Virus record (IMG/VR): IMGVR_UViG_3300025168_015970 | Coordinates: 1 to 64,000 of that record | Source: a virus | Direction: 5' to 3' (one strand) | DNA: 64,000 nt | Shown here: positions 3,708 through 29,524 of the stretch, in pieces | How the letters are laid out: the number at the start of each line of letters is the position of its first letter | Position numbering within the stretch: position 1 is the first letter of the stretch | Program-made: the position numbers and the translations under genes | Notes under the pieces: generated by a model | What the model saw: only the letters and a program-made list of their open reading frames with translations | The model's database searches: none | Told to the model about the DNA's origin: nothing

Positions 3708-4469
3708 TTAAGTATTTAATCTATTATTCTTTTTATCTTCAGCAACTTTTCTTTCCATTTCCTTTTTTATGTGAGAGTTTTCTTCAGGATCTACATCTTT
3801 CCATACTTCTTCTAGTTTTTTAATCTCTTCAAGAGTTTCTTCATCTAAAATATTACCAGGAGAGGTAGCTGAACCATCTTCATCTATATATAATTTTAAT
3901 AATTCTATACGTTCTTCCCTACTACCAAACACCTCGATAATAGGTGGCTTATCATCAACAACAAAAAATGTTGTCTTCGGATTCTGTTCATGTTCTCGGT
4001 GTACAGCTTTGAAGATATTATCTATAGATTCTACAATTTCAGAATCTGTATCTCTTAAGTCATCCTCCTCCATTGGTACAGGGGCTACTTTAGTTATAGG
4101 AGTAAAAAATATAACATCTAAATTTCGAAAACTCTCTCTTACTAATGGTATACACTTACCAATAAATGCTTCATCTATGTCATTATCTGGCTGCTCAACA
4201 GCCCACATACTATATACTAAATTATCTAAAGGGCATCTATCAAAAACTACATTATCTCCTGATCTATATTTTTGAGTTTCTTCAATTTGAAAATTAAGAA
4301 TTTCCCATTGAGTTTTTTTATTTGTTTTTGATGAGTGGTCGAGATTATTATCTTTGATAATATCTCTATATGTTTTTTTAGGTGTAACATAATTAGGCCA
4401 CTGTCCTAAAAAATCTTTTATTAAAGTAGTTTTTCCTTGACAAGCTGTTCCACTAATTGCAATCCTCAT
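3708..4469 (-). CDS. P-loop nucleotide kinase (AAA_28/dNMP-kinase-like)
   Basis: IAISGTACQGKTT Walker A and FDRCPLD motif; directly downstream of queE. Confidence 0.7.
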   Translation of the reverse strand: MRIAISGTACQGKTTLIKDFLGQWPNYVTPKKTYRDIIKDNNLDHSSKTNKKTQWEILNFQIEETQKYRSGDNVVFDRCPLDNLVYSMWAVEQPDNDIDEAFIGKCIPLVRESFRNLDVIFFTPITKVAPVPMEEDDLRDTDSEIVESIDNIFKAVHREHEQNPKTTFFVVDDKPPIIEVFGSREERIELLKLYIDEDGSATSPGNILDEETLEEIKKLEEVWKDVDPEENSHIKKEMERKVAEDKKNNRLNT

Positions 4470-4487
4470 ATTTTTTTATTTATTAAA

Positions 4488-5249
4488 TTATACTTTTAAG
4501 GCCATGTCCCATACTAATAGGTGTAATCTAGGGCTAAATTTAAAATGATAAGATTTAGCAAACTCAGCTATTTCTTCTGCTCTTTCAATATGCTCTTTTC
4601 TACTACCAGCACAAGGCATTAACCAGACTCTATCATTTGGTATATTAAATTTATGTACATACTTTGTTAATACTTCTTGTAAGTCTTCTTCCTTACTAAT
4701 AACAAATTTAAAACCAGAATTATTTGTTACATGCCATTTTAATACCTCTGGTTTATATCTTCGCTCCTCAGGATCACCATTATTACTAAGCTTAGGGGAT
4801 GTCGTAAACGTTGCACCAACTCTTAACCAGTCGCTATGAGGCATAATCGTTGCATTAGTTTCAAAATCAATCCTAGGTACTGTACCCCACTCTACTTCTA
4901 TATGCTCTAAAAATTTAAGTAATTTAGGTTGCTGTACTAATGGTTCACCTCCAGTAATTTTCCAAATTGCTCCATTCTCAAGAGCTTTTCTGTAACCACC
5001 ATCTTCTAGATATGTAGTTAACTCTGCAAAGGTCATCTTATTCTTTACACTCCAAGAAATAAAACTATCACAACCATGAGGAGAATCAGCTGAAGCGAAG
5101 CCTTGACATGTTAAATTACACATTGATAACCTCATGAATACTGAAGGCCAGCCTACGTATTCTCCTTCGCCCTCAATAGTATAAAATACTTTATCGTCAG
5201 ATAATAATAATGTTTTATCCTTAAGGTCTTCCTTATAATCGTTCGTCAT
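4488..5249 (-). CDS. queE: 7-carboxy-7-deazaguanine synthase (radical SAM)
   Basis: FYTIEGEG..SVFMRLSMCNLTC..GCDS, ITGGEP, ETN, SPKL and FSPRLH motifs. Confidence 0.92.
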   Translation of the reverse strand: MTNDYKEDLKDKTLLLSDDKVFYTIEGEGEYVGWPSVFMRLSMCNLTCQGFASADSPHGCDSFISWSVKNKMTFAELTTYLEDGGYRKALENGAIWKITGGEPLVQQPKLLKFLEHIEVEWGTVPRIDFETNATIMPHSDWLRVGATFTTSPKLSNNGDPEERRYKPEVLKWHVTNNSGFKFVISKEEDLQEVLTKYVHKFNIPNDRVWLMPCAGSRKEHIERAEEIAEFAKSYHFKFSPRLHLLVWDMALKV

Positions 5250-5382
5250 TTAAATATAAATCTTTAACATCTCTAGGCTCTGGCTTAACCTCTTCCTTTT
5301 TTGGTTTGCCCCAATCAATATCATTCCAGTTATCACCGATTTTTGATATATCTTCTTTACGTCTTTTACTACCTTTACTCAT
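5233..5382 (-). CDS. Small hypothetical protein (49 aa, MSKGSKRRKEDISKIGDNWNDIDWG...), not in the ORF track
   Basis: Fills the queD-queE gap and overlaps both neighbours; ATG at 5382, TAA at 5233. Confidence 0.6.
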   Translation of the reverse strand: MSKGSKRRKEDISKIGDNWNDIDWGKPKKEEVKPEPRDVKDLYLNDERL

Positions 5383-5842
5383 TTGATAATCTAATCTCCG
5401 TTTCTATACCTTCATAAATAGCAGAATTATTTTCATGTTCAAATATTTCTACTTTCTTACACCAACATCTACCCTTAGTAATTTCTTTTATGTATTCATC
5501 TGCTGTCTTGTAACAAAACTCAGCAAATTTCTCAATACCAACTCCACCTTCCATAATACGTAAATCTACAATATCATGCTCATTTAAAGATTTAAAGTTT
5601 GCTATTGCTGGGTCAGTAGACGAAATAACTGTAGTATGATCAAATTGAAGTTGGAATATTTTCTTAAGGTTTTTTAAACTACCAAAATCTACAACCCAAT
5701 TATTCTCATCTAACTCTTTCGCACCGAACCAGAATTTACCGACTAAACGATATCCATGAATAAATCGACAATGAGACTTTGCTTCAGGCTGCCTAAAGGC
5801 ACAACTACCTAATTCAATAATCTTAGTACTGCTAAAAGACAT
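5375..5842 (-). CDS. queD: 6-carboxytetrahydropterin synthase (QueD/PTPS)
   Basis: SHCRFIHGY, VVDFG, FDHT and EIFEHENNSA motifs. Confidence 0.9.
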   Translation of the reverse strand: MSFSSTKIIELGSCAFRQPEAKSHCRFIHGYRLVGKFWFGAKELDENNWVVDFGSLKNLKKIFQLQFDHTTVISSTDPAIANFKSLNEHDIVDLRIMEGGVGIEKFAEFCYKTADEYIKEITKGRCWCKKVEIFEHENNSAIYEGIETEIRLSNE

Positions 5843-5849
5843 AAAAGCT

Positions 5850-5908
5850 ATTATAACTGAAGCCTAAAAAAATTCAACTGTTGATTACTTAGCGGCTTCC
5901 TATATAAT
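5850..5908. promoter_or_regulatory. Divergent sigma70-like promoters for queD (minus) and folE (plus)
   Basis: Minus: TTGAAT-16-TATAAT-7-ATG (5877 to 5850). Plus: TTGATT-16-TATAAT-6-ATG (5881-5908). Confidence 0.6.
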
Positions 5909-5914
5909 AACTGC

Positions 5915-6550
5915 ATGAGTGAATTATTGCAGTATGCAAACGGTAACTTACCACGGTCTGAAGAAGAGAAAGAAATAATTATTGAGAAAGCAGCATCCGC
6001 TTATGAGAAATATATGGACGCTCTAGGTTTTGATTGGAGAAATGATCCTAATAGTTCAGATACCCCGAGACGAGTAGCAAAGGCTTTTGTTAATGACTTA
6101 GCTGAAGGTTGTTATAATTTACCACCAAGGATTACAGCATTCGATAATGTGGATAAATATGATGGATTAGTATTTCAAGGTAATATTAAGGTAAATTCTT
6201 TTTGTTCTCATCATCATTTACCGTTTATTGGTCAAGCTCATGTATCTTACATACCTGGTAAAGACGGAAAAGTAATTGGACTAAGTAAAATTAATCGAAT
6301 TGTTGAATGGTTTGCGAGACGACCACAAGTACAAGAAAATTTAACGATGCAAATTCATAATTATATGAATGAAGTATGTAAAGATAATAAAGGTATTGCG
6401 GTCTTAGTTTCAGCTAATCATACTTGTGCTGGACTTCGCGGAGTTAAGCATGATAGTATTATGAAAACTGCGAGAATGTCAGGAGCATTTTTAGATAAAA
6501 CAGATTTGACAAGACAAGAGTTTTACGATTTTATAAGAGACTTAAAGTGA
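5915..6550 (+). CDS. folE: GTP cyclohydrolase I
   Basis: DTPRRVAK, SFCSHHHLPF, GLSKINR, RPQVQE and HTCAGLRGV motifs. Confidence 0.95.
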   Translation: MSELLQYANGNLPRSEEEKEIIIEKAASAYEKYMDALGFDWRNDPNSSDTPRRVAKAFVNDLAEGCYNLPPRITAFDNVDKYDGLVFQGNIKVNSFCSHHHLPFIGQAHVSYIPGKDGKVIGLSKINRIVEWFARRPQVQENLTMQIHNYMNEVCKDNKGIAVLVSANHTCAGLRGVKHDSIMKTARMSGAFLDKTDLTRQEFYDFIRDLK

Positions 6551-7612
6551 GTCTAAAATTTGTTTGATTTGATCAAGGTCGACATGCTCCGGTATGTCGG
6601 CTTTTATTTTGTCAAAATCATCAAAATTATCTCTTATATTACTCGCGCTATATGGTCTACCATCAGGGCTAGAGGATACCTCGACTGCAGATTGTTCTGG
6701 GTCAATAATATTAATATCTAACCCTTCTTTTTCAGCCCATGGACTAGCATAAGACCAACGTTTCCAATCATTGTCTTTTTTACTTGCACCTAATACAGCT
6801 GTTGTACCAGGGTCTAAAGTTTTAAGAGATTCATAAGCAGAAGTTACAGGAGAAGGATGTTCAGATATACTTATAGTAACGTTATTCAAAGGTTGGGTAT
6901 ATATTTCAAATATTTGTTTTGCTGCAGCGGGAGTAATTAATTTACCGTCTTTAGTTCTTCTTTCACTTTTAGCAGAAGGTGCTGAAATTAAAACATGTAT
7001 TTGTCCCTGAGGGTACATATTACTATATTGTTCCACCATTTCGTAATGGCCTCTATGAGGGGGTTTAAAACTACCGGGTATAAGTACAACTACTCTATCA
7101 GTATCAGCTTCCGCTAAACTGTTTTTTTTTAAATCATCTATAAGAGTATCTATTTTAGAATCAAAATTTTCACTCAAACCATAATCAACAACAATCTTGC
7201 GTAATATCTTTGCTATTTCTTTCGCATTTTCTGGTTGTACATCTTGAGTTATAGCTTCTCTTTCAACATCAGATAAACTAACATTATCTAAATCAACAAA
7301 TAAAGATTTACGCGCTAAATTAACATAAAATGTTTCTCCTTCTGTAGTTAACGGAGCTGGTGCTTCTGGTGCTGGTGCTGGGGCTTCTGGCTGTTCTCCT
7401 TGATTTAATTCATCCCCTTCAGCTTCATCTAAAGATTTCAATAACTCCTGTCTTTTCTTTTTTGCTTTTTGAGCGATTTGTTTTTTGACTGGGTCTTTAG
7501 TAGTACCATCTTCAACCTCTTTTTCAATACGGTCAATTTCCGATTGATCGGTTTTTGCTGGTTTTTTACCACCATGCATCATTTCATGTATCTTAGAGAG
7601 AAACTTACTCAT
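6542..7612 (-). CDS. Protein with a C-terminal HIGH-motif nucleotidyltransferase (cytidylyltransferase-like) domain and a charged N-terminal region
   Basis: PGSFKPPHRGH and SASNIR motifs; perfect TATAAATA late promoter at 7619-7626. Confidence 0.7.
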   Translation of the reverse strand: MSKFLSKIHEMMHGGKKPAKTDQSEIDRIEKEVEDGTTKDPVKKQIAQKAKKKRQELLKSLDEAEGDELNQGEQPEAPAPAPEAPAPLTTEGETFYVNLARKSLFVDLDNVSLSDVEREAITQDVQPENAKEIAKILRKIVVDYGLSENFDSKIDTLIDDLKKNSLAEADTDRVVVLIPGSFKPPHRGHYEMVEQYSNMYPQGQIHVLISAPSAKSERRTKDGKLITPAAAKQIFEIYTQPLNNVTISISEHPSPVTSAYESLKTLDPGTTAVLGASKKDNDWKRWSYASPWAEKEGLDINIIDPEQSAVEVSSSPDGRPYSASNIRDNFDDFDKIKADIPEHVDLDQIKQILDSL

Positions 7613-7621
7613 CTTAATTAT

Positions 7622-8170: not shown

Positions 8171-8624
8171 TTTTTTTCCAAAAGTCTGTATAACTAATTA
8201 TAACATATTTGTTAGTATAGCGCAAGAAATTATCAAATCGGAAATAGTGAGATAATTCAACTGGAAATAAAATATAACTACCTTTGCGAGTTACTTTAAT
8301 TACGAGAAACCAATATGTTCCACTCTCTGCTTGTTCAATCCATTTATTAAGAGTTTTATTATCTGTAAATAGTTGATGATATTCGAATGTTTTGTAACTC
8401 TTACACTCAATTTTGAATTTAGACATGCATGGAGGTACCATTATATCTCCATCCATCATGCGCTTTTGATCTTCTGTTAGTCGATCAAGTCTGTGAAAAT
8501 TAGCGCCTCCAGTATAGGCTCCGGAATTTGGAACTCTAATAAAATTTTCATTAAACGTTTCACTTAAATCTTTAGCAACTTCTCTTTCCCAAGCGTTACC
8601 TTTTTGTTTCGCCGCACTAGGCAT
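8121..8624 (-). CDS. Hjc-like Holliday junction resolvase (PD-(D/E)xK)
   Basis: KQKGNAWEREVA..SGA..GDI..IECKSY pattern. Confidence 0.75.
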   Translation of the reverse strand: MPSAAKQKGNAWEREVAKDLSETFNENFIRVPNSGAYTGGANFHRLDRLTEDQKRMMDGDIMVPPCMSKFKIECKSYKTFEYHQLFTDNKTLNKWIEQAESGTYWFLVIKVTRKGSYILFPVELSHYFRFDNFLRYTNKYVIISYTDFWKKNASTIRELNTKPDLKL

Positions 8625-8637
8625 ATATAAGTATATA

Positions 8638-15718: not shown

Positions 15719-18376
15719 GTGTATAGAAACTTAGCATACATACCCAATCAGCGAGTCATGAGACTCTACACATGGGATGAAAATGGGGAGAGAATAGAAA
15801 CAGATTGCCCATATCAACCTTATTTTTATTATGAAACAAATTCAAATAGATATGATGGGGTGTCTTTATACGGTACTAAATTAAGAAAAGTCTTTGCTAA
15901 TAGTAATCTTGACCGCCGTAAAAAAATTGAAGATTTAAATGATCATAAAATTTATGAGAACATTACACCCTATCAACAGTTTTTAGTAGATAGGTTCTGG
16001 GAAGTAAATGAATCTAATGATTTTAGTAAATTTCCATTAAAGATATGGTTCTTTGATATTGAGACATATTCCCCCGACGAATTTCCAAAACCAGAGGAAG
16101 CTAGTCATATGATAAATGTAATCACTATATATGATACAGTAAAGGAAACGTATTATACATGGGGAATTAATCCATATACCCCTAAAACAGATGATGTTGT
16201 TTACGTACATTGTAAGAGTGAAGTTGAGCTGTTACAGAAATTTTTAGACTTTTATTGCAATGATCGCCCTGATATACTATCTGGGTGGAATAGTGAGATA
16301 TTTGATGTCCCGTATGTAATAAACCGGGTCAGAAATCTCTTAGGAGAAGATGCTACAAGACTGTTTTCTCCAGTCCATGACGAAATTATGAAGCCAATAT
16401 ACCAACGAGTGTATCGTGGTAATTTTGGTATGACAACTACGAAATATGTAGTAGAAGGGGTGTCTATGCTTGATTATCTCGATGTGTATAAAACCTTCAG
16501 CATGGGCATGAGAGACAGCTATAAGTTAGATAACATAGCTCATATAGAACTAGGAGAGAACAAGGTAGATATAGGAGAAACTAACCTTGCTACACTGTCT
16601 ATAGAGGATTGGGACAAGTTTGTTGATTACAATATACATGATGTTAGATTGCTAGTACGACTGGAAGCTAAGCTTATGTACATGGATCTTGCTCGTATGT
16701 TGTCTTATATTGGACTAACCCCGTTTAATGCGGCTTTAGGTACAATCAGCACTGTAAACGGTCGAGCAATCGTTGAAGCGCGAAAGCTAGATACCCCTAG
16801 AGTTATACCAACTTTTGTGAAAGGAGATGACCGCACCGGGAAATTTGAAGGGGCTTATGTTGGTGAACCGAAACGAGGGTTTCAGGAAAATGTTATATCT
16901 TTTGACGCTAACTCCCTGTACCCTAGTGTAATGGTAACTCTTAACTTGAGCCCAGAAACTAAAGTAGGTAGCATTGTCGGTACTGATAATGGTAAGGTGT
17001 TTGTAAAGACAGTCAATAACAAGGATATTGAAATGTCTTATGAAGACTTCAACAAATGGTGTGCAAAAAATGAGATTGCAGTCACTAGAGCAAAAAAACT
17101 TTTCTCTCAAAAAACCAAAGGTATCTTCCCTAGAATTACAGATCACTTCTATGATATACGAAAAGTAAAAAAACAAGAATGGAACGAAGCTAGGGAGGCT
17201 TTACATCAATTATCATTGAAATTAGAAAAAGAAACTGACAGTAAAGAGCGTATCAAAATAGAGCAAGATATGAAAGATATGCAATTCAAAATTGATCAGC
17301 TTTGGATTTGGCAGTTTACTTTAAAGATTCTTATTAACAGAATTTACGGCTATTTTGGCAATAAAATATCTCAAATGGGGGATGGAGACATCGCAAGATC
17401 AATTACGTTAACTGGTAGAGACGTAATTAAACAAAGTAATATAATTCTAAGAAACTATATTAAAAAGATTACCGGGATGTCTGATAAAGAATTGGATGGT
17501 AATGATCCAATCATATATAATGACACAGATAGCTCTTATTGTACTATAACCCCTATACTAAAACATCTAGGTATACCCTTACATGATAACAATAAAATAG
17601 ATGACCGAGTATATAAATTAGTACAAGATATTGAAGACGATTTAAACGTTCATATTGATAAATGGGCAAGAGATACCCTATTAACTAAGGATCCTAGGTT
17701 TGTTTTTAAGAGGGAGTCAATTTGTGACAAAGGTATATTTCTACAAAAGAAACGTTACGTGTTACATAAACTTGACGATGAAGGAGTAGTTTGCAATAAA
17801 TTTAAATACACCGGGGTAGAGGTAGTTAGAACCACTATGCCTAATGCAATCAAGCCATATGTTAAGAAAATTATTGAACATATGATTATGACTGAAAATC
17901 AAAATACTACTAACGAACTGTTTGAAGAGACGTATGAAATTTTTAAGTCCTTACCAATTAAAGATATTGCATTTGTGATGGGAGTTAAAGAATATGAGAA
18001 ATATAGCATATATACTAAAGATTGGCAGGTCAAAAAAGGAACACCGATTCACGTTAAGTCCTCTATATATTACAATAAACTTTTAGAGCATTATGGTATT
18101 GACAAGAAATATGAAAGTATTAGTTCAGGTGATAAAATCCGGTATTTTTATACTGTGACCCCTAATAAGTTTGGTTTAAATAGCTTAGGTTTTAAGTATG
18201 ACTTACCTCAAGAATTCGAACAAGACTTTAAAATAGACTACGAAAAAATGTTCGACAAGATTGTTTATAGCGTTATTGATAGGTTCTATGATAACGTGAA
18301 TTGGAAGTCCTTTAAACCTGGTCAAGCAGTAAATGTAGATTTATTTGATTTCTTTAAAGTAGATGTTGCAAATTAA
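15719..18376 (+). CDS. gp43: Family B DNA polymerase gp43
   Basis: FDIETY, GWNSEIFD, YNIHD exonuclease motifs; SFDANSLYPS, KILINRIYG, YNDTDS and KKRY polymerase motifs. Confidence 0.97.
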   Translation: MYRNLAYIPNQRVMRLYTWDENGERIETDCPYQPYFYYETNSNRYDGVSLYGTKLRKVFANSNLDRRKKIEDLNDHKIYENITPYQQFLVDRFWEVNESNDFSKFPLKIWFFDIETYSPDEFPKPEEASHMINVITIYDTVKETYYTWGINPYTPKTDDVVYVHCKSEVELLQKFLDFYCNDRPDILSGWNSEIFDVPYVINRVRNLLGEDATRLFSPVHDEIMKPIYQRVYRGNFGMTTTKYVVEGVSMLDYLDVYKTFSMGMRDSYKLDNIAHIELGENKVDIGETNLATLSIEDWDKFVDYNIHDVRLLVRLEAKLMYMDLARMLSYIGLTPFNAALGTISTVNGRAIVEARKLDTPRVIPTFVKGDDRTGKFEGAYVGEPKRGFQENVISFDANSLYPSVMVTLNLSPETKVGSIVGTDNGKVFVKTVNNKDIEMSYEDFNKWCAKNEIAVTRAKKLFSQKTKGIFPRITDHFYDIRKVKKQEWNEAREALHQLSLKLEKETDSKERIKIEQDMKDMQFKIDQLWIWQFTLKILINRIYGYFGNKISQMGDGDIARSITLTGRDVIKQSNIILRNYIKKITGMSDKELDGNDPIIYNDTDSSYCTITPILKHLGIPLHDNNKIDDRVYKLVQDIEDDLNVHIDKWARDTLLTKDPRFVFKRESICDKGIFLQKKRYVLHKLDDEGVVCNKFKYTGVEVVRTTMPNAIKPYVKKIIEHMIMTENQNTTNELFEETYEIFKSLPIKDIAFVMGVKEYEKYSIYTKDWQVKKGTPIHVKSSIYYNKLLEHYGIDKKYESISSGDKIRYFYTVTPNKFGLNSLGFKYDLPQEFEQDFKIDYEKMFDKIVYSVIDRFYDNVNWKSFKPGQAVNVDLFDFFKVDVAN

Positions 18377-18399: not shown

Positions 18400-18756
18400 A
18401 TGGACATTATCACATACATTGATAGTATAGGTAGGACATGTTTCGGAGAACTAGAGTCTCGTACGAAGAACTCTATTAAAGTTAAATCACCCGCTATGAT
18501 TATGGTGACTCCTAACGACGCTGCGAACATGAAGGTAGACGTTATGCCTCTATTTTTTACAGAATTCTCTAACGGAAAACCACCGGTTTTTATTTATAAA
18601 GACCCTCAATTCGTAGAGGTAGAAATTGAGATTTCTGAGAAAATCTTACAGCATTATTATGCAAAGATAAACACTACAGAGGAACCAAACCCTGCAGGGG
18701 TAACTGAAGCCCTTGAGGAAGAAGTACCTGAAGTAACATTATTCGAAGAGAAATAA
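18400..18756 (+). CDS. Hypothetical protein (beta-rich, acidic tail)
   Basis: ORF with its own promoter, coupled to uvsX. Confidence 0.65.
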   Translation: MDIITYIDSIGRTCFGELESRTKNSIKVKSPAMIMVTPNDAANMKVDVMPLFFTEFSNGKPPVFIYKDPQFVEVEIEISEKILQHYYAKINTTEEPNPAGVTEALEEEVPEVTLFEEK

Positions 18757-18758: not shown

Positions 18759-19847
18759 ATGTCATCTCTCGCTGATAAAGCTTTTGCTAAATTACAAAAG
18801 TTAAATTCAAACGCTACTACTCTCGAAAATAATACACTTAGTAACGTAACTGAGTGGATTGATACAGGTTGTTTAGTATTAAACTCTATAGTATCAGGTT
18901 CTATATATGGAGGGGTACCTAAAGGTAGAATTACCATTTTTGCTGGAGATTCCGGTTGTGGTAAAACGTTTATTTTAAATAAAATTTTAGCAAACGCTCA
19001 GCGAATGGGTATGATACCTATTATTTTTGACACTGAAATAGCTGTTGAAAATGAAGGAGCAGAAAACGTCGGCTTAGATACATCTAACGTAAAATATGTA
19101 CCGGTCGATACTGTAGAAAATTGTCGTAATCAGATTATGACATTTTTAGATGAAGTAGAAAAAGAACCAGAACTACATGGTAAATTTATTATTTCAATAG
19201 ACTCTTTAGGCAATTTAGCATCAGAAAAAGAAATAAATGATGCTCATGCTAATAAGGGCGCCATGGATATGGGTTTAAGAGCTAAGCAGCTGAAGTCCAT
19301 GATGCGTATCATTACTTTTAAAGCAGCCGTGACTGGTACAACAGTTATATGCAGTAATCATACTTATGCGAATCCCGCAGCATTACATCCTACCTTAGTT
19401 AAGTCTCAAGCTGGTGGCTCGGGGCCTATATACATGGCGTCTATATTAGTTCAAATGGCAGCTAAGAAAGAAAAAACTGATGCATCTAACGATGAGGATG
19501 AAGCTTTAACTGAAAGCAGAAATTACTCAGGAGTTACTCTCCGTATGCTTACAGTAAAAAATAGATTCATTCCAGCATTCTTACAAGGGGAAGCTTATTT
19601 AAATTTTAAAACTGGTCTAGATAAATATTCTGGTTTAAAAGATATTGCAGTTGCTCATGGGATTGTTCAACAAAATGGTTCTACCTATAGCATGGGAGAT
19701 AAAAAATTAGGTTATTATAAGAATTGGCGCAATGACGAAGAGACGTGGAAAAATATCTTACCTAAGTTAGAATCTTCTATAAGTGAAAAGTACCGATACG
19801 GTAAGTCCTTAGATAAATCTGCTATATTAGAACAAGATGAAGAGTAA
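18759..19847 (+). CDS. uvsX: RecA-like recombinase UvsX
   Basis: IDTG..LN..SG..GGVP.GRI, GDSGCGKT, FDTE, IDSLGNL and NHTY motifs. Confidence 0.93.
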   Translation: MSSLADKAFAKLQKLNSNATTLENNTLSNVTEWIDTGCLVLNSIVSGSIYGGVPKGRITIFAGDSGCGKTFILNKILANAQRMGMIPIIFDTEIAVENEGAENVGLDTSNVKYVPVDTVENCRNQIMTFLDEVEKEPELHGKFIISIDSLGNLASEKEINDAHANKGAMDMGLRAKQLKSMMRIITFKAAVTGTTVICSNHTYANPAALHPTLVKSQAGGSGPIYMASILVQMAAKKEKTDASNDEDEALTESRNYSGVTLRMLTVKNRFIPAFLQGEAYLNFKTGLDKYSGLKDIAVAHGIVQQNGSTYSMGDKKLGYYKNWRNDEETWKNILPKLESSISEKYRYGKSLDKSAILEQDEE

Positions 19848-20526
19848 AGCTGTAGTACCTATTTCAGGTGGTTTAGATAGTTCCGTAATATTAAGTTTTG
19901 CTGCTGAAAAGCATGATGATATATATGCAATAACTTATGACTACGGTCAAAAGCACAATAAAGAATTATTATATGCAGGTCTTCAAATTGATTATTATGA
20001 TAATATTGAAGAGCATAACATAATTGATTTACCGTTTTTTAAAAATCTAGCTCCAACCTCTTCTCTTACAAATAATAATATACCTGTTGCTCATGCGCGA
20101 GATGTATTAGGAGACGCTCAGACTGTAAACTATGTTCCCTTTCGTAATATGATGATGTTATCTATTGCGTGTTCATATGCAGAGGCGGTAGGAGCGGAGA
20201 CTGTATATCATGGATCTGCTTTGGTAGATAGTCAGGCTGGTTATTGGGATGGTAGTAGTGAGTTCTTACAAAAGATAAATGAGACAACTTCTTTAAATAG
20301 AAAGCATTTAGTAAAAGTTGAAGCCCCTTTAATTAATTTATCAAAAGCAGCAATTGTTGAGCTTGGTATAGATAATAAAGTTAACTTTGAAGATACGTGG
20401 ACTTGTTATGAAGGAAAAGATAAGGCGTGTGGTTATTGTACAGCTTGTAGTTCTCGTATACAAGGCTTTTTAGAAAATAATCTTAAAGACCCGGTAGAAT
20501 ATTCAAGAACGGATATTCCATGGTAA
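19837..20526 (+). CDS. queC: 7-cyano-7-deazaguanine synthase QueC-like
   Basis: SGGLDSS PP-loop, YGQKH, YVPFRN and TWTCY..CGYCTAC zinc motif. Confidence 0.92.
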   Translation: MKSKAVVPISGGLDSSVILSFAAEKHDDIYAITYDYGQKHNKELLYAGLQIDYYDNIEEHNIIDLPFFKNLAPTSSLTNNNIPVAHARDVLGDAQTVNYVPFRNMMMLSIACSYAEAVGAETVYHGSALVDSQAGYWDGSSEFLQKINETTSLNRKHLVKVEAPLINLSKAAIVELGIDNKVNFEDTWTCYEGKDKACGYCTACSSRIQGFLENNLKDPVEYSRTDIPW

Positions 20527-20541
20527 AAATATAATATTAAT

Positions 20542-21177
20542 ATGTGCGGTATATTTGGATCAAATAATATAAAAACATTCAGGGAGTTATATAATAAAAA
20601 CTCAGAGAGAGGTAATTTTGTACGTAGCATTACTAAGTTATTTCTACCAAACACTAAACATAATGGTGTAAATGTAACAACAGAATACTCCCAAGACTTT
20701 AATAAGAGTATAGAAGAAGATGATTTATGTGTTTATTATCTTGGCCATGTTCAATCTCCAACAACAGAAGTAAGAGAGTTTAATACAGATACCTCTCACC
20801 CGTTTCAATTTAAAGATACATACATTGCTCATAATGGGGTATTAGAAAATTCTAACGAATTAAAAGAGAAATATGAGTTACCAGCAAATGATGTAGATAG
20901 TAGTATTATACCTTCTCTCATATATAGACTAGGTTATAAGGAAGCTCTATCTGCATTAAAAGGAACATTTGGTTGTTGGGCATATGATCAACAATTGGGA
21001 CAACTCCGTATATTTAGATCTGGTTCTACATTATGCCTGAGAGGTTCCTCTTTTAGTTCTGCTTATAAGCCTGATTATGAGAGAGTAGAACAAGGAGTTA
21101 TATACGAGTGTAATTTTAGTACTAATACGTTCTTTAAAGTAGATAGTTTTAGTAGTAACTCACCGTTCTTTTTATGA
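20542..21177 (+). CDS. Class II (Ntn) glutamine amidotransferase, stand-alone
   Basis: N-terminal MCGIFG, ERG, HPF, AHNG and DS motifs; directly after queC. Confidence 0.8.
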   Translation: MCGIFGSNNIKTFRELYNKNSERGNFVRSITKLFLPNTKHNGVNVTTEYSQDFNKSIEEDDLCVYYLGHVQSPTTEVREFNTDTSHPFQFKDTYIAHNGVLENSNELKEKYELPANDVDSSIIPSLIYRLGYKEALSALKGTFGCWAYDQQLGQLRIFRSGSTLCLRGSSFSSAYKPDYERVEQGVIYECNFSTNTFFKVDSFSSNSPFFL

Positions 21178-21875
21178 AGACTTTAATCGCAACAGCTACC
21201 AAAGCGGGGGCGACAGAGTTCTCTAATACAAGGTTAGCAAAAAGTTTACAATATCATAAAGATAATACTATAACTAAGTTCGATTTAAAGGTTACATATA
21301 ATAATACTGCCGGTCTATGTTCTGTTTACAACAAATACTTGACCCCTAAATTTTTAGATAAGTATGATTGTATTTTGTTTGTACATGATGATATATCTAT
21401 AGATAGCTTATTCTTCCAAAAATGTATTCGTAATTTATTCAAAAAGGGTTTTGATGTTGTCGGATTAGCAGGCGGTAGTAATATACAAGTTAAAAAACCT
21501 GCTCTATGGCACTTGTTATGTAAACAAGAGTCTTTATCTGGAGTAGTATCTCATTATACTAATAAAGAGGACTACGGTCAGACAATATTCGGACAAGTAC
21601 CTAAAGAGGTAATTTTGCTTGATGGATTATTTTTAGCAGTAAGAACAAAATCTATAAAACAAACAAAAATAAAGTTTGATAGAAATATAACAGGCTTCCA
21701 TCATTATGACTTAAAATTCTGTTTAGATTGTCATTTAGCTGGTTTGCGTTTAACTACTGCCCCTATTCATGTAATACATGACTCCCCTGGCCTAACCCAA
21801 GTCACTGAAGACTATAGCAAATCAGAGGACTACTTCTATAATACTCTTGTCGAACATGCTAACAAGCGAAAATAA
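21174..21875 (+). CDS. GT-A (GT2-like) glycosyltransferase
   Basis: YN..ILFVHDDI, VVGLAG, LDGLFLAV, FHHYDLKFCL and IHDSPG motifs. Confidence 0.75.
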   Translation: MKTLIATATKAGATEFSNTRLAKSLQYHKDNTITKFDLKVTYNNTAGLCSVYNKYLTPKFLDKYDCILFVHDDISIDSLFFQKCIRNLFKKGFDVVGLAGGSNIQVKKPALWHLLCKQESLSGVVSHYTNKEDYGQTIFGQVPKEVILLDGLFLAVRTKSIKQTKIKFDRNITGFHHYDLKFCLDCHLAGLRLTTAPIHVIHDSPGLTQVTEDYSKSEDYFYNTLVEHANKRK

Positions 21876-23202
21876 TTACTTAGATATAGATCTTGATTAT
21901 TTAGAAAAGATAGTCTTTAAGAATTGTCTCGAAGATGATATTTACTTAAATTCTATTATTGATAATCTTAATTATAAGTTCTTTAAAAATAAGGACTTTC
22001 AACAGATTATTAAATTAATACAAGCTTTATATAAAAAGAATAGTAAGAGACCTACTCGTACTGAATTAGAATTATATTTAAATACTGATCAGTTAAAAGA
22101 TCATTATAGTAAAAGTAAAACTTTAATTAATGATATAGAGTCAGATTTAACTTCTGATGATTTATATTCGTATACTGAAAAATACTTACAAGAGCAAGCT
22201 GTATTTAATACCTTTTTAGATATTGTTGATAGTAAGGAAAGAGATGTAAAGAGTATTCACGAAAAGTTTAATAAGGCATGCAATATATCAATTACTACAA
22301 ATGTTGGGCATGATTATTTTAACGATCTAGAACAACATATAATAAACCTAACTACTAGAGAACATAAAATTAAAACCGGATGGGATTGGTTAGATGAAAG
22401 ATTAGGTGGAGGTTTCCTTGAAGATGGTCGTAGTATGTATGTATTTGCTGGTCCTACTAACGTAGGTAAGTCTATATTTTTAAGTAATATAGCTACTACT
22501 GCTGCAGCTGAAGGTAAAAATGTTTTAGTAGTCTCTCTTGAAATGTCTGAGATGATATACAGTAAACGAATTACTTCAAGACTTACTGGTTTACCTATAA
22601 ATCATTTAGACGAACATATTGAAAGCTTAAGAGAGAGTGTAGGTAAGTTTAAAATGCTTCACCCGCGCGCTAATATGATAATTAAAGAGTTTGCTCCTAA
22701 CTCTATTACTCCACCTCAATTAGAAGGGTTCATTAAAAAGCTTATTAATAAGGATTTTAAACCTGATATTATTGTATTAGATTATTTAAATTTAATGGCT
22801 AGTACTCATGGTAATAATTCATATGAAAGAATTAAAAGTATATCAGAGCAAGTACGAGCTATGTCTTATACATTCGAATGCCCTGTAATATCAGCTACTC
22901 AGGTTAATAGAACTGGGTATGGTAATAATGCAGGTGGACCTGGGCTAGAGTCTATTGGAGAGAGTTATGGTTTAGGAGCTACTGCAGACGCTATAATTAG
23001 TATATGGAGGACGGAAGAAGATGAAGAAGACAACGCTCTGCATATAGGTATTATTAAAAATCGCTTTGGTTCTAATACCGGTAGTACTCGTCTTGGTATA
23101 GATTATAATACTTTAACGCTAACCGAAAATAATGAATTAAATGTTAATGACGATATAAATGCAGCAGAGGATGATGCTGTACAATTCGGAAGAGTAGTGT
23201 AA
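21847..23202 (+). CDS. gp41: Replicative helicase gp41 (DnaB-like)
   Basis: GPTNVGKS, SLEMSE, LDYLNL, ATQVNR, ESYG and KNRFG motifs; ATG start probably at 21856. Confidence 0.94.
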   Translation: MSNMLTSENNYLDIDLDYLEKIVFKNCLEDDIYLNSIIDNLNYKFFKNKDFQQIIKLIQALYKKNSKRPTRTELELYLNTDQLKDHYSKSKTLINDIESDLTSDDLYSYTEKYLQEQAVFNTFLDIVDSKERDVKSIHEKFNKACNISITTNVGHDYFNDLEQHIINLTTREHKIKTGWDWLDERLGGGFLEDGRSMYVFAGPTNVGKSIFLSNIATTAAAEGKNVLVVSLEMSEMIYSKRITSRLTGLPINHLDEHIESLRESVGKFKMLHPRANMIIKEFAPNSITPPQLEGFIKKLINKDFKPDIIVLDYLNLMASTHGNNSYERIKSISEQVRAMSYTFECPVISATQVNRTGYGNNAGGPGLESIGESYGLGATADAIISIWRTEEDEEDNALHIGIIKNRFGSNTGSTRLGIDYNTLTLTENNELNVNDDINAAEDDAVQFGRVV

Positions 23203-25008: not shown

Positions 25009-25868
25009 CGACGAGTATGTTTGCATCAATCAAGGACGCGTTGGCCAAGCCTTCGCAAGGAAGTAACACAACTAGCAATATTATGCGGTTGAAGACAGGT
25101 AATACATATGTATTGCGACTAGTGCCTTTCGTGAAAGACCCTAGTAAGACATTCTTTCACTATTATTCTCATGGATGGGTAAGTGAAGCAACTGGACAAT
25201 TCCAAAGTGCTATTAGTCCTCAGACTTGGGGTGAAAGAGATCCAATTGCTGAGGCTCGCTATAAACTTTCTCGTACTGGTACTGAGGAAGAGAAAGAGAA
25301 AGCAAGGGCGTTAAACCGTAGAGAGAATTGGTTAATTAACGTTTATGTTGTAAAAGATGGAGATAATCCAGAAAATGAAGGTAAGGTTAAAATTCTTCGA
25401 TTCGGTAAGCAATTACATAAGATTGTGATGGATGCTATTGAAGGAGAAGACGCTGATGAATTTGGTGAGCGTATTTTTGATCTAACTGATAATGGTTGTA
25501 GCTTAAAGGTCAAAGTTGAAGAACAAGGTGGTTATCCTACTTATGTAAGTTCAAGATTTGCAGCTCCCGCCGCAATCCCTGGTGTTACTGCAGATAGCGT
25601 AAAGGATGTATATGATAAGGTCTTTGATCTTGAAAATGTATTCCCAGTGAAGAGTTATGAAGAACTGCAAACAATGTTAAATGAGCATTATCATGGTATT
25701 GAAGGAGGGTCAGCTCCAGCAGAAGCTCCAACCTCAAGCACAGCGTCCACTAAAGTAGATGATGACGATGATGAAATTAGCTTTGACGATATTGAGTCAA
25801 CTTCAAAAACCCCAGGTACTCCAGTAGACGATAGTAAGGTGAAAGAGTTACTTGATAGCTTGGATTAA
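25005..25868 (+). CDS. gp32: Single-stranded DNA-binding protein gp32
   Basis: LRLVP, YYSHGW, NVYVVKD..NPENEGKVKILRFGK, YPTYVSSRF and an acidic tail ending ELLDSLD. Confidence 0.9.
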   Translation: MTTSMFASIKDALAKPSQGSNTTSNIMRLKTGNTYVLRLVPFVKDPSKTFFHYYSHGWVSEATGQFQSAISPQTWGERDPIAEARYKLSRTGTEEEKEKARALNRRENWLINVYVVKDGDNPENEGKVKILRFGKQLHKIVMDAIEGEDADEFGERIFDLTDNGCSLKVKVEEQGGYPTYVSSRFAAPAAIPGVTADSVKDVYDKVFDLENVFPVKSYEELQTMLNEHYHGIEGGSAPAEAPTSSTASTKVDDDDDEISFDDIESTSKTPGTPVDDSKVKELLDSLD

Positions 25869-25877
25869 ACAACTATG

Positions 25878-25900
25878 GGGGAGGGCAACCTCCCCTTTTT
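25878..25900 (+). terminator. Rho-independent terminator after gp32
   Basis: GGGGAGG-GCAA-CCTCCCC followed by TTTTT. Confidence 0.85.
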
Positions 25901-25908
25901 ATAATAAA

Positions 25909-26316
25909 ATGACACCACAAGAAAGGGAAGAAGCTATAATTGAAAAAATGATGCTACATCAGGTAAATGCTGATGTAAAATCCGTCAACCGAAATATTGT
26001 ACAAGAGGCTTCTGCTTTAAAGCAAATACCTATTAATAATCAAATTTACCAAAAAGGACCTATCGGTGCGCCAGCACCAGCTCCTCAGCCTCCTCAGCCA
26101 GTCGCACCTCAACAACAACCCCCTCCACCAATACCACAAATACAACAAATTGTACAACAAGACCTAACTCCATTAATTGACAGGGTTACAAGTCTTGAAT
26201 CCCAAATTACAAAATTTGTTAATCTCATTGAACGTAACGTTGCAAAGAACGCTAAAGAGATTAATATAAGAATCAAATTAAAAGACCAATATTACGCCGA
26301 CGAAGGCGATGAGTAA
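25909..26316 (+). CDS. Pro/Gln-rich coiled-coil hypothetical protein
   Basis: Start moved to ATG 25909, downstream of the terminator. Confidence 0.65.
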   Translation: MTPQEREEAIIEKMMLHQVNADVKSVNRNIVQEASALKQIPINNQIYQKGPIGAPAPAPQPPQPVAPQQQPPPPIPQIQQIVQQDLTPLIDRVTSLESQITKFVNLIERNVAKNAKEINIRIKLKDQYYADEGDE

Positions 26317-27047
26317 TGATTCTACCAATAAAGAGTAAAGATAATTTTATCAAAAGCTTTCTCAACCCTGTGTCGAGATTAGCACCATCTTCAACATTAG
26401 ATATTAATGATAAAATAACTACAGTCGTACATAACAACTCAAACATTTTCTTACGGGCAGAGTATGAAGTAAAGTGGCCTGATCGCTCAGAAGAAGCTGT
26501 ATTGTGTTTGCCAGATACAATAAAATTAATTAAGATATTATCTTGTTTAGATGAAGATTCTATAGATCTAAAAGTAGGTGGGAATTGTATTACTTACAGT
26601 AACAATAATAATAGATTTAAATATCACTTATTTGATGATAGTTTAAAATCTAAAAGTGCCTTTGATTTTGATAAAATTGATAGTATAAAGTTTGGTACTA
26701 ACTTCGAATTGACTCAGCAAAAGAATAGCGCCCTTTTGAAAGCGTTACCATTTGTTACAGAGACGAGCAAGGTTTATTTAAAGACGGAAGGTAAAAGTGT
26801 TTATGCAGAGCTTTCTGATAAGAAAATACAAAATGTAGATAGTTATACCGCTTTAATTGCAGATGAATTTCAAGGAGATGATTTAGATTATGAGCTCATT
26901 CTCGATGTAGAATTATTCAGATTAATATCAACATTGAGCTTTGAGAGTGCAACAGTGTATATTAATAATGAATATAAAATGCTAATGATACGGCTTGAAA
27001 TAAATGAGAGTCGTCTTACATTCGTTAGTACGAGTTATAAGAATTAA
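26316..27047 (+). CDS. gp45: Sliding clamp gp45-like
   Basis: 243 aa with a two-fold beta/alpha clamp-like pattern, in the replication cluster; sequence is divergent. Confidence 0.6.
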   Translation: MILPIKSKDNFIKSFLNPVSRLAPSSTLDINDKITTVVHNNSNIFLRAEYEVKWPDRSEEAVLCLPDTIKLIKILSCLDEDSIDLKVGGNCITYSNNNNRFKYHLFDDSLKSKSAFDFDKIDSIKFGTNFELTQQKNSALLKALPFVTETSKVYLKTEGKSVYAELSDKKIQNVDSYTALIADEFQGDDLDYELILDVELFRLISTLSFESATVYINNEYKMLMIRLEINESRLTFVSTSYKN

Positions 27048-27349
27048 TGAAAAATAAGGTAACAACCTGTGGTTATTTTATTAAACGGTTGAGAGACAAC
27101 GGTTATACTGTTAACAGAATCTTCAATGAATACTCGAGGGATGATTGTCGCAAATGGACTGTAATGATTGACCCTAGAGTATCTTCTCTATATATCACAT
27201 GCTATGTAAATAGAGATTGGCACGGAGATTTAATGTTCGAATTAAATGACGGAAATAAATTTAAAAACTTACAACTAAAAACTGATAGTATGGAGGTTAT
27301 TTTAACCAAACTAATAGACAAAAATATAATACCAAGTGAAAAAAAATAA
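27047..27349 (+). CDS. Hypothetical protein
   Basis: Coupled ORF (TAATG overlap). Confidence 0.65.
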   Translation: MKNKVTTCGYFIKRLRDNGYTVNRIFNEYSRDDCRKWTVMIDPRVSSLYITCYVNRDWHGDLMFELNDGNKFKNLQLKTDSMEVILTKLIDKNIIPSEKK

Positions 27350-27626
27350 ACCAAAGAATTTTGATAACTTATTAAAAACAAGTATTAACGCTGCTGATGA
27401 TATGATCAACGGCAATGAAGAAGATTTATCTATGATAAATGATTATTTATCCGAGTATTTAAAATCTTTCTGTCTATTAGGTTATGATACTAAAGGTGAG
27501 AGTGTAGTTATACTCGCAGGTAAAACTGCTCAAGATTACGACGCTATAGAGACATTATTACGCAGAATAAGTAATGTAGATTTTTTTAACAACATACAAG
27601 AAGAAAAAAGTAAATCAAATGAATAA
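27336..27626 (+). CDS. Hypothetical protein
   Basis: Coupled ORF, GTG start. Confidence 0.6.
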   Translation: MKKNKPKNFDNLLKTSINAADDMINGNEEDLSMINDYLSEYLKSFCLLGYDTKGESVVILAGKTAQDYDAIETLLRRISNVDFFNNIQEEKSKSNE

Positions 27627-28530
27627 AATAATTGTTTTAGGCAACGGTTATATAGGTAAGCAGGTGTACAAACACCTTGTAGGTACAATTATAGATAGGG
27701 ATGTAAAACTACTCAATAGTTATGAGTATAACAACCCGGGTTCTCTAAGAGGAACTCTCTTTAATAGTTTAGAGACAGAGTTTAAAACGAGTTCCCCAGA
27801 TCATGTTAGTCAAAAATGGCTAATAAATTGTGTTGGTTATACTGGTAAACCGAACGTTGATGCCTGTGAAGAAGATAAACAAAATTGCTGGGATTTAAAC
27901 GTAACTTTCCCTACGCTATTAGCAAATGAGTGCGCAAAATATAATGTAAAAATTATTAATATTAGCTCCGGTTGCATATATGATGATATAGATAAATCTA
28001 GTGTTCCGTTTACAGAGGAGGATGAACCTAACTTTGGTGTAGAAAACGGTAACAGTAGTTGGTATAGTAAGACAAAACACGCAGCAGAACTATGTCTTGC
28101 TGCTTATCTTAATGTATATACCTTAAGGATACGTATGCCTGTATGTAGTGACTTTAACTCGAGTAAAAACTATCTCACAAAGCTTTTGAAGTATAACAAT
28201 TTACTACAAGAAGTTAATTCAAAAACAATTATTGAAGACCTAACGACTGTAGTAGGTAATATAATTTATAGACAGGATATACCTACTGGAATTTATAATT
28301 GTGTTAATCCAGATCCACTAGATACAAAAGAGGTAACTAAGATATTAGATAAATATGGTATGTGGAACCCAAATTGGAAATTTATCGATTATGAAGGGCT
28401 TAAAGAACATATTAAGACCAATAGGTCTAATTGTATTCTGTCTACTGAAAAATCCAAAGAAGTAGGTATAGAGTTCCCTACAGAAAGAGAGTCCTTACAT
28501 CGCATTCTTTCTCCAGAAAATGAAGAATAA
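27619..28530 (+). CDS. NDP-4-keto-6-deoxyglucose 3,5-epimerase/4-reductase (NRS/ER-type, RmlD-family SDR)
   Basis: GNGYIG, GYTGKPNVDACE, SSGCIY, EEDEPNF, YSKTK, LRIRMP, NYLTKL and RSNCIL match the NRS/ER pattern as recalled. Confidence 0.8.
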   Translation: MNKIIVLGNGYIGKQVYKHLVGTIIDRDVKLLNSYEYNNPGSLRGTLFNSLETEFKTSSPDHVSQKWLINCVGYTGKPNVDACEEDKQNCWDLNVTFPTLLANECAKYNVKIINISSGCIYDDIDKSSVPFTEEDEPNFGVENGNSSWYSKTKHAAELCLAAYLNVYTLRIRMPVCSDFNSSKNYLTKLLKYNNLLQEVNSKTIIEDLTTVVGNIIYRQDIPTGIYNCVNPDPLDTKEVTKILDKYGMWNPNWKFIDYEGLKEHIKTNRSNCILSTEKSKEVGIEFPTERESLHRILSPENEE

Positions 28531-29524
28531 AAATATATTAGTCACCGGCGGTTTAGGTTTTATAGGTAGTCATTTTGTAGAATTACTCTACAAAGAATGT
28601 TCTAATTGTAAAATCACAATTTTAGATAATTTCTGTTATTGTGTAGCAAAAAGTACTGACGATTACCTGTTTAACATGTTTCAGAATTCAACCAATAAAT
28701 TTAATATCATATATGAAGATATTAATAATTTTACTAATGTTAAGGGTTATGATTATGTTATTAATTTCGCCGCAGAATCTCATGTAGATAATAGTATTAA
28801 AGATGGTACTCCGTTTATCACCTCTAATTATACCGGGGTTTATAATCTATTAACTCAATTAAATGATAACCAGCGTTTTATACAGGTAGGTACAGATGAG
28901 GTTTACGGTAGCTTACAATTTAATAGTTCACCAAGTGAAGAATATGACCGCTTAGAACCATCGTCAGTTTATTCTGCAACAAAAGCTGCCGCAGATTTGT
29001 TAGCATTATCTTTTAATAAAACCTACAATAAAGATATAATAGTAACTAGATGTACTAATAATTTTGGACCCAGACAATACCCTGAAAAATTAATTCCGGT
29101 TGTTATTAATAAGGCTCTTAACAATGAAGAAATACCAGTTTACGGTAAAGGAGAAAATATACGTCAATGGATCTATGTTACAGACCATTGCAGAAAGCTT
29201 TTCGATATATTAAAATACGGTACATCTGGAAAAATTTATAATATTGCTCCGGACTATGATTCTGAAGTTACTAATAATTCTATTATTGATCAGATTTTAG
29301 AAGTTTTAAAGAAACCAAAAAAATTAATTACATATGTAGAAGATAGAAAAGGCCATGATTTAAGGTATTCTTTAAGAGCGAGTCAATATCGAGGTATGAT
29401 GTTTGCTAACGATCAACAATTAGACCTACCTGGAACTGAAAAAACATTTGCCGATGATTTGAGATACACTATAATGTGGTATAGTGAAAACAAAAACTGG
29501 TGGAAAAAGAAATCTAATAATTGA
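28520..29524 (+). CDS. rmlB: dTDP-glucose 4,6-dehydratase
   Basis: TGGLGFIGS, FAAESHVD, TDEVYG, YSATKA, NNFGPRQYPEKLIP and DRKGHD.RY motifs. Confidence 0.93.
   Translation: MKNKNILVTGGLGFIGSHFVELLYKECSNCKITILDNFCYCVAKSTDDYLFNMFQNSTNKFNIIYEDINNFTNVKGYDYVINFAAESHVDNSIKDGTPFITSNYTGVYNLLTQLNDNQRFIQVGTDEVYGSLQFNSSPSEEYDRLEPSSVYSATKAAADLLALSFNKTYNKDIIVTRCTNNFGPRQYPEKLIPVVINKALNNEEIPVYGKGENIRQWIYVTDHCRKLFDILKYGTSGKIYNIAPDYDSEVTNNSIIDQILEVLKKPKKLITYVEDRKGHDLRYSLRASQYRGMMFANDQQLDLPGTEKTFADDLRYTIMWYSENKNWWKKKSNN

Follow-up and report, generated by a model that had tools for sequence, protein, structure and literature searches.

DpdA is the signature of the systems that place 7-deazaguanines in phage DNA, and in phage immuto_2-6A liquid chromatography-mass spectrometry (LC-MS) has shown the complete replacement of deoxyguanosine (dG) by fdPreQ1, the formylated deoxynucleoside of preQ1 (7-aminomethyl-7-deazaguanine) (Cui et al. 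2023, PMC10516641). In phage 9g, a fusion of a glutamine amidotransferase to QueC (Gat-QueC) yields archaeosine (G+) and, together with DpdA, gives deoxyarchaeosine (dG+) in E. coli, while the KVP40-like Vibrio phage nt-1, which uses DpdA2, modifies only ~0.1% of its guanines (PMC6884629). Sugars are linked to 7-deazaguanines in actinomycetes, where two natural products, huimycin and dapiramicin, are glycosylated forms of preQ0 (7-cyano-7-deazaguanine) (PMC7439116; bioRxiv 10.64898/2026.04.15.718813), and to DNA by the alpha- and beta-glucosyltransferases of phage T4, which act on 5-hydroxymethylcytosine. Here we describe the first 64 kb (hereafter the window) of the 75,055-bp IMG/VR virus contig IMGVR_UViG_3300025168_015970, which carries the 7-deazaguanine genes FolE, QueD, QueE and QueC, a stand-alone Gat, two glycosyltransferases (GT-A and GT-B) and genes for the synthesis of rhamnose, several of them within a T4-type replication operon. 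The initial annotation of this DNA had proposed a deazaguanine base in DNA, glycosylated possibly with rhamnose. The explanation that we favour is that the window probably holds the supply half of a DpdA3-type DNA modification system, and that the two glycosyltransferases (GTs) act independently of it.

Every gene named in the initial annotation could be found in its place when the open reading frames (ORFs) were searched against Pfam, PHROG and NCBIfam (Table 1). The same three collections show that the precursor gene set for preQ0 as well as 7-carboxy-7-deazaguanine (CDG), namely FolE, QueD, QueE and QueC, is complete in the window. UvsX, QueC, Gat, GT-A and gp41 form, as had been described, a packed run on the + strand (18759-23202); overlaps occur at UvsX/QueC, Gat/GT and GT/gp41. 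The QueC of the window retains its PP-loop and zinc cysteines and shares with the rest of its clade the motif GYWDG, compared with GYPDC in bacterial QueC and GYWDC in nt-1; judged by its sequence, the QueC of the clade is a phage subtype. The C-terminal zinc cysteines have been lost in one lineage (L093:5868-6692). QueE stays adjacent to QueD in the relatives, and a search of 20 clade contigs detected FolE in 10; several of those without it do not extend to the region (G008, for instance, starts just before QueC).

Gat is homologous to the ORF directly after QueC in nt-1 (28% identity, E 3e-13), is conserved across the clade and has a TATAAT box of its own, placed 7 nt before the ATG and similar to the boxes of FolE and QueD. 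In both phages QueC is thus followed by a separate class II N-terminal nucleophile (Ntn) glutaminase, of ~200 aa in nt-1 (VPFG_00172, VPFG_00173), although no GT follows Gat in nt-1. The Gat-QueC fusion of 9g and of Crenarchaeota, which serves archaeosine synthesis, likewise joins a class II glutaminase to the PP-loop ATPase QueC, but here these are two genes in reverse order, QueC first and then Gat, in genomes that have QueF, DpdN and DpdA3 and not DpdA1. Since QueC needs ammonia to form the nitrile, a glutaminase partner suffices to explain Gat, which by its sequence and position is likely the ammonia-supplying partner of QueC. Across the clade, Gat mostly has an SPFF-like C-terminal tail (window 21088-21177), after which come one or two hydrophobic residues. 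In many relatives a GMP reductase (NF003966, 310 bits; for example L027:8408-9364) lies between QueC and Gat, where the window has none (20526-20542), and in some a xanthine/hypoxanthine-type phosphoribosyltransferase is found beside QueE (L115:3864-4382) or near DpdA3 (G003, G025). Because these two enzymes parallel ToyE and ToyH of toyocamycin synthesis, they hint, by analogy, that part of the deazaguanine pathway may run at the nucleotide level. In another relative (G002; L117:10618-16904) FolE and QueD are separated by an insertion of eight successive ORFs (216-303 aa), without a Pfam match except for one weak GDSL-lipase.

The source phage is a member of a large uncultured marine T4-like clade. 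Its contig was judged ~37% complete, the whole genome being estimated at ~200 kb, and the GC content of the window is ~31%. The window holds a T4-type replication and recombination set (UvsY, UvsW, gp55, gp47, gp46, gp43, UvsX, gp41, gp32, a clamp-like gene, RNase H and primase), with T4-type terminase, sheath and tube genes downstream. Its gp43 is only ~30% identical to the polymerases of cyanophages and of pelagiphage HTVC008M, and 7.5 kb of the window gave no match to cultured phages in blastn; near-identical sequence is present in marine metagenome runs from 13 studies. We sampled the clade through IMG/VR searches in which the GT-A protein and an alignment of distant GT-A homologues served as queries; these gave more than 100 distinct contigs, and several hundred related loci were recovered in all. 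Over gp43 identities of 42-91% the contigs share the order gp46, GT-B, gp43, a 118-aa protein, UvsX, (variable), QueC, (variable), Gat, GT-A, gp41, DHH, two small genes, gp32, clamp, two small genes, (NRS/ER), (RmlB, RmlA), RNase H and primase, in which the brackets mark variable or optional slots. The adjacency of queC, gat and the GT gene, which had been put forward as a check on the proposal, is therefore a conserved feature of the related phages.

In the relatives we could detect the enzymes that would insert and tailor the base. The Pfam profile of tRNA-guanine transglycosylases (TGT, PF01702) matched nothing in 20 clade contigs, but it also missed the DpdA2 of nt-1 and the DpdA3 of phage phiST, so that the blank excludes only enzymes of the DpdA1 type. 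Searches of the clade with the nt-1 DpdA2 protein and with PF20314 (DUF6610, DpdA4) gave no match either, and in tblastn a single query, the phiST DpdA3, failed to reach the Campylobacter or Flavobacterium phages. We then used a profile, made by aligning the phiST DpdA3 (CGPG_00065, named by Cui et al. 2023) with its sole close cultured homologue, that of MA9V-3. This profile matched ORFs of ~270 aa in G008 (4e-18), G003 (3e-12) and G012 (4e-12), the last being a relative with 91-92% amino-acid identity to the window in gp43, UvsX and gp41. With the DNA guanine transglycosylase of immuto_2-6A the G012 protein shares 48% identity (8e-54), and with a Campylobacter phage CP220 protein 37% (5e-37). 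The gene after it is 39.5% identical to the immuto formyltransferase (2e-29), and next come a small ORF, a gene for a P-loop kinase and a bimodular QueF, the last assigned in the relatives by motif reading and gene position. DpdA3, formyltransferase, kinase and QueF are present in the close relatives G012 and G003, the distant G008 and G025. The place of this module in G012 and G003 is 45-50 kb upstream of FolE, which on the window contig would be beyond the left end; in G001 and G002 it falls just past the ends of the contigs, which explains their blanks. The fourth of these relatives, G025, is a complete genome of 200,819 bp with terminal repeats (gp43 identity 88%), and it carries every arm: DpdA3-DpdN-kinase-QueF at 10-14 kb, a purine-type phosphoribosyltransferase at 19 kb, QueC-GMP reductase-Gat-GT-A at 146-149 kb, FolE-QueD-QueE at 162-165 kb, and rml genes.

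Five ORFs were considered as hidden DpdA candidates and rejected: one of 243 aa is clamp-like, one of 215 aa stands at the expected gp59 place and has no PDB match, one of 356 aa is cytidylyltransferase-like, one of 320 aa is an acidic low-complexity protein, and the AAA_28 protein is unrelated to DpdA3. The kinase of the module, of ~185 aa, is a distant paralogue of that AAA_28 protein and is fixed between the DpdN-like gene and QueF (L125:2915-3469, L124:9558-10133, L126:13075-13632). It occupies the place of an immuto gene annotated as thymidylate kinase.

The closest of the known systems in gene content is thus that of immuto_2-6A, with the same gene families, the order DpdA3, formyltransferase, P-loop kinase and QueF, and, in the relatives too, a small purine-type phosphoribosyltransferase nearby. 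The clade differs from it in that the genes are spread over three separate arms of a ~200-kb T4-like genome, in that its QueC is paired with a separate Gat, absent from immuto, to which some relatives add the GMP reductase, and in the presence of GT-A and GT-B, neither of which immuto has. From this comparison we think it likely that FolE, QueD, QueE, QueC and Gat are the arm that supplies the base in a DpdA3-type 7-deazaguanine DNA-replacement system. FolE, QueD and QueE would convert GTP to CDG, and QueC would convert this to preQ0 with ammonia from Gat. The other half, DpdA3, the DpdN-like formyltransferase, the kinase and QueF, would stand outside the fragment, at the distance from FolE found in the relatives. 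By analogy with immuto_2-6A, QueF would then reduce preQ0 to preQ1, DpdA3 would swap preQ1 for guanine in DNA after replication, and DpdN would formylate the inserted preQ1, so that the product would probably be fdPreQ1. Since QueF and DpdN lie beside DpdA3, they argue for the preQ1 branch. The likely benefit to the phage would be protection from restriction.

Whether the sugar genes are tied to this base can be judged from a sub-lineage that lacks the que genes. In at least eight contigs (L129-L136, L139) UvsX is followed by a reverse-strand ORF and then GT-A, with its catalytic motifs intact, and GT-B still precedes gp43; the 410-aa GT-B, GT-A, GT4, AAA_28 and PhoH are kept in the same order. 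QueC, FolE and DpdA3 were not found in the que-less contigs of 87 kb, 67.5 kb and smaller, the two largest of which reach 60 kb upstream of gp55 and 56 kb downstream of GT-A, respectively. By synteny, other genes stand at all three matching sites: at that of QueC and Gat both genes are missing while UvsX and GT-A are retained; at that of FolE the GT4, AAA_28, PhoH and UvsY genes are in place without FolE, QueD and QueE; and at that of DpdA3 the flanks are retained and enclose three unrelated ORFs on the reverse strand. The converse is seen in the KVP40-like phages, which have QueC and Gat without GT-A. Since GTs occur without que genes and que genes without the GT, the decoupling runs in both directions. 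We therefore consider a sugar-decorated deazaguanine unlikely, because the GT and rhamnose genes occur in the relatives independently of the que pathway, and the dependence of the GTs on the que genes that the initial annotation had supposed does not hold among them. Variation of the GT and rml genes independently of the que genes had been named in the initial annotation as an outcome that would refute its proposal, and the relatives show it. Of its central proposal, the placing of a 7-deazaguanine in DNA gains good support, at the level of the lineage, from the DpdA3 module of the relatives, and the coupling to GTs and rhamnose is not supported in view of the que-less sub-lineage and the KVP40-like phages. 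At the locus (G020:C1:68439-75154) gp41, the DHH protein, NRS/ER and RNase H are likewise missing from the que-less sub-lineage; as read from gene content, an entire block of the replication operon has been lost or moved there.

We examined the two GTs by structure prediction. The GT-A model (pLDDT, the predicted local distance difference test, 94.5) has a Rossmann-like GT-A fold with, by model and alignment, a DxD-type site for metal and nucleotide-sugar; its best PDB match is UDP-bound majastridin (2qgi, template-modelling (TM) score 0.67), and further Foldseek matches are B4GALNT1, STIV A197 and polypeptide GalNAc transferases. The viral models that it matched are only unnamed GT-A proteins. 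Its motifs HDD, HHYD and SPGL are invariant, H-D-D across 40 sequences. GT-A has no promoter of its own and lies behind the early-type promoter of Gat, with which it is therefore probably co-transcribed. The GT-B model (pLDDT 86) has as its nearest PDB folds PglA, BshA, WaaG and MshA, and T4 alpha-glucosyltransferase (AGT) or beta-glucosyltransferase (BGT) does not appear in its Foldseek PDB listing. By Foldseek, neither fold bears a likeness to known DNA glycosyltransferases. The few remote homologues of GT-B in cultured phages stand beside sugar-nucleotide genes in Streptomyces and Arthrobacter phages. Taken with the decoupling, our preferred explanation is that GT-A and GT-B are core genes of the clade that, on balance, work independently of the deazaguanine pathway.

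The rhamnose genes are likewise only in part associated with the que genes. The short-chain dehydrogenase/reductase (SDR) before RmlB is of the NRS/ER type, as proposed, with matches to an Arabidopsis enzyme (4qqr, 1e-32) and a UDP-L-rhamnose synthase (7jid, 1e-19) compared with ~1e-4 for RmlD. RmlC was not found on the contig, and with RmlA, RmlB and NRS/ER the phage could, judging from these assignments, make nucleoside diphosphate (NDP)-L-rhamnose with three genes. NRS/ER and RmlB lie between the clamp-like gene and RNase H, and RmlA lies among the tail genes behind a late-type TAAATA box. RmlA is real, although it falls outside the region that the initial annotation had delimited, and the first gene of that region encodes the AAA_28 protein and is not a que gene. 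NRS/ER occurs in roughly half the loci that have que genes; RmlB is restricted to the close clade and one other branch, with RmlA beside it in few, so that both are present in a minority of the que-positive relatives. The expected co-occurrence of rml genes with que and GT genes does not hold; the rml genes are patchy across the relatives.

The 75-kb contig has seven GT genes in all, plus the rhamnose pathway and heptose-type genes; beyond those listed in the initial annotation there are two GT25 genes, a GT4 gene, a GT2 gene, a GmhA-like SIS protein and two cytidylyltransferase-like proteins. Much of this content is in islands that differ even between close relatives. The GT25 at the left end has no relative in IMG/VR, and the left island differs in G012, which has there an RmlC-like frame interrupted by TAG. 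A second island at the right end holds GT25, GT2 and a cytidylyltransferase (L001:7746-9566; contig 70746-72566). Many GTs, variable islands and an RmlA placed with tail genes behind a late-type promoter would fit a glycan on the virion or envelope, and most likely the sugar genes build a glycan on another target than the base, for example virion proteins or the host envelope.

Several observations weigh against the explanation that we favour or limit its reach. DpdA3, the DpdN-like formyltransferase, the P-loop kinase and QueF are not on the 75-kb contig, in which the DpdA3 profile had no match, and it is from the relatives that we infer a DpdA3 arm in the source phage itself. The final base may differ from fdPreQ1, because Gat is absent from immuto_2-6A and the fused Gat-QueC gives G+ in 9g. 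More generally, we infer which base results, what Gat does and on what the GTs act, and the chemistry of the clade members is read from their genes. The que-less contigs are at most 41% complete, and que genes elsewhere in those genomes are possible. Finally, Gat and GT-A are adjacent with overlapping stop and start, and so translationally coupled, in more than 60 divergent contigs, and this junction and the shared promoter leave room for a functional link in the que-positive phages.

This last point also speaks for the glycosylation of the deazaguanine, possibly with rhamnose, by GT-A and/or GT-B, in DNA or at the nucleotide level. The pair lies behind an early-type promoter within the replication operon, the phage would itself make NDP-L-rhamnose, and one Foldseek match of GT-A is the glycosyltransferase AvpGT, solved with adenine arabinoside (Ara-A). 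Huimycin and dapiramicin provide a chemical precedent, their pathways combining preQ0 genes with glycosyltransferases, and the proposed dapiramicin cluster has RmlB- and RmlD-like enzymes without RmlC; however, these are small-molecule antibiotics made from dedicated clusters with a GT4-family GT (PF13439), while the GTs of the clade are que-independent. A glycosylated deazapurine in DNA was not found in the literature searched. Against it, GT-A and GT-B keep their places in a lineage that has no que or dpdA genes, KVP40-like phages do without GT-A, the rhamnose genes are missing from many que-positive relatives, and neither fold resembles a known DNA glycosyltransferase. Immuto_2-6A, whose insertion and tailoring module is the same, has unsugared fdPreQ1, and the formyl group from DpdN would leave no obvious acceptor atom. 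We regard this glycosylation as quite improbable, and it carries the consequence, just as improbable, that the que-less lineage would have re-used GT-A for another acceptor. The base in DNA could instead be dG+ or 2'-deoxy-7-amido-7-deazaguanosine (dADG), with QueC and Gat acting as a two-piece Gat-QueC like that of 9g. The production of dG+ by the fused enzyme with DpdA, the GYWDG variant of QueC and the clade-wide conservation of a Gat that immuto manages without are in keeping with this. QueF and a DpdN-like gene beside DpdA3, as in immuto, are sensible only if preQ0 goes to preQ1, though; nt-1, with QueC and a Gat homologue, has mostly deoxy-preQ0 (dPreQ0) and only traces of dG+; and Gat is sufficiently explained by supplying QueC with ammonia. 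These points make dG+ or dADG a doubtful assignment, to which we leave a modest chance.

A different possibility is that the two core GTs do modify DNA, at a target other than deazaguanine such as a hydroxymethylpyrimidine in T-even phages. They stand among T4-like replication genes, near gp46/gp43 and uvsX/gp41, map places similar to those of the T4 a-gt and b-gt genes, and they are retained where que genes are absent. Unlike T4, however, the clade has no detectable hydroxymethylase of the thymidylate-synthase family (PF00303) in 24 contigs, two of them complete genomes, which argues that an acceptor of the hydroxymethylcytosine (hmC) or hydroxymethyluracil (hmU) type is absent. Further, the folds are nearest to generic GT-A and GT4 enzymes and not to AGT or BGT, the GTs persist without base-modification genes, and the remote homologues of GT-B keep company with sugar-nucleotide genes in actinophages. 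The analogy with T-even DNA glycosylation, on which the initial annotation had drawn, is thus not borne out, and we hold such a DNA target to be highly improbable. It could also be argued that the que genes are auxiliary metabolic genes that raise queuosine in host tRNA, the phage DNA being unmodified, which is how the older literature read phage que genes (PMC4360716) and which would agree with a window contig without DpdA. Yet the relatives carry DpdA3, no PF01702-type TGT enzyme was found in the 20 clade contigs, and every tested phage with such genes has modified DNA and DpdA (PMC10516641), so that a role in tRNA is scarcely credible.

Other features of the window and its surroundings are as follows (Table 1). 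The AAA_28 protein beside QueE is not que-specific, as it is also kept in the que-less genome G020. The nearest ESM Atlas clusters of the cytidylyl/adenylyltransferase-like protein beside FolE are viral CTP_transf_like proteins. Next to the terminase gene, 34708-35670 on the - strand encodes a very acidic low-complexity protein of 320 aa with one CxxCxGxG zinc knuckle, which may be a scaffold or internal protein, and near the right contig end there is a DUF932 protein (E 4e-34; L001:6483-7508, contig 69483-70508). Two classes of promoter box could be recognized: a TATAAT box ends 5-8 nt before the ATG in the early genes FolE, QueD, UvsY, the 118-aa gene and Gat, and TAAATA lies 7-15 nt before the ATG in the late genes TerL, the acidic 320-aa protein, DHH, PhoH, AAA_28 and RmlA. 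Over window positions 1-42800 this spacing from box to start leaves little room for a Shine-Dalgarno site. Between gp43 and UvsX, the 118-aa protein ends (18700-18756) in KLFD[DE] in the clade and in TLFE in the window; KLFD[DE] resembles the clamp-binding tail of gp43 (DLFDLL or DLFDFF). When C-termini were compared, an LFD-type clamp-docking tail was found only on gp43 and the 118-aa protein and not on the GTs or DpdA3 of the clade.

Table 1. Positions (window numbering) and assignments of the features discussed in the text.
Feature	Position	Strand	Evidence and remarks
Variable sugar island: GT25 (cut by contig end), GmhA-like SIS, GT4	1..2673	-	Pfam; NCBIfam gmhA weak
AAA_28 P-loop (NadR-kinase-like) protein	3708..4469	-	Pfam AAA_28, 1e-14; adjoins QueE
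QueE-like radical SAM (7-carboxy-7-deazaguanine synthase)	4488..5249	-	PHROG 2076, 7.6e-44; weak Pfam Fer4_12
QueD (6-carboxy-tetrahydropterin synthase, PTPS family)	5375..5842	-	Pfam PF01242, 9e-16
FolE, GTP cyclohydrolase I	5915..6550	+	Pfam PF01227, 2e-46
Cytidylyl/adenylyltransferase-like protein	6542..7612	-	Weak PF01467 and TIGR00125 matches; adjoins FolE
GT-B, GT4-type GT-B glycosyltransferase, 410 aa	14454..15686	+	PHROG 7162, 4e-22; between gp46 and gp43
gp43 DNA polymerase	15719..18376	+	Pfam DNA_pol_B; C-terminal DLFDFF clamp-binding-type tail
UvsX recombinase	18759..19847	+	Pfam RecA
QueC (7-cyano-7-deazaguanine synthase)	19837..20526	+	Pfam PF06508, 2e-56; TIGR00364 166 bits, above cut-off
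Gat, stand-alone class II (Ntn) glutamine amidotransferase	20542..21177	+	Pfam GATase_6, 1e-10; 211 aa, begins MCG
GT-A, GT-A fold glycosyltransferase (PF13712)	21174..21875	+	Pfam 3e-10
gp41 replicative helicase	21847..23202	+	Pfam DnaB_C, 3e-28
Clamp-like gene	26316-27047		
NRS/ER-type bifunctional NDP-4-keto-6-deoxyglucose 3,5-epimerase/4-reductase (rhamnose synthase), SDR	27619..28530	+	
RmlB, dTDP-glucose 4,6-dehydratase	28520..29524	+	TIGR01181 322 bits, E 5e-96; below 365-bit cut-off
RNase H	29484-30449		
RmlA, glucose-1-phosphate thymidylyltransferase	38617..39477	-	TIGR01207 288 bits, below 360-bit cut-off; NTP_transferase 1e-50

The DpdA3-type system was known already; what the genes described here would add is a new bearer of it, in which QueC and Gat are split and pathway-independent GTs stand beside them. 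The claim of a sugar-bearing deazaguanine, attractive but unsupported, is thereby removed. With this large marine clade added, the phages that probably replace all of their guanine with a DpdA3-type 7-deazaguanine gain new members, which bears both on escape from restriction and on sequencing bias in marine viromes.

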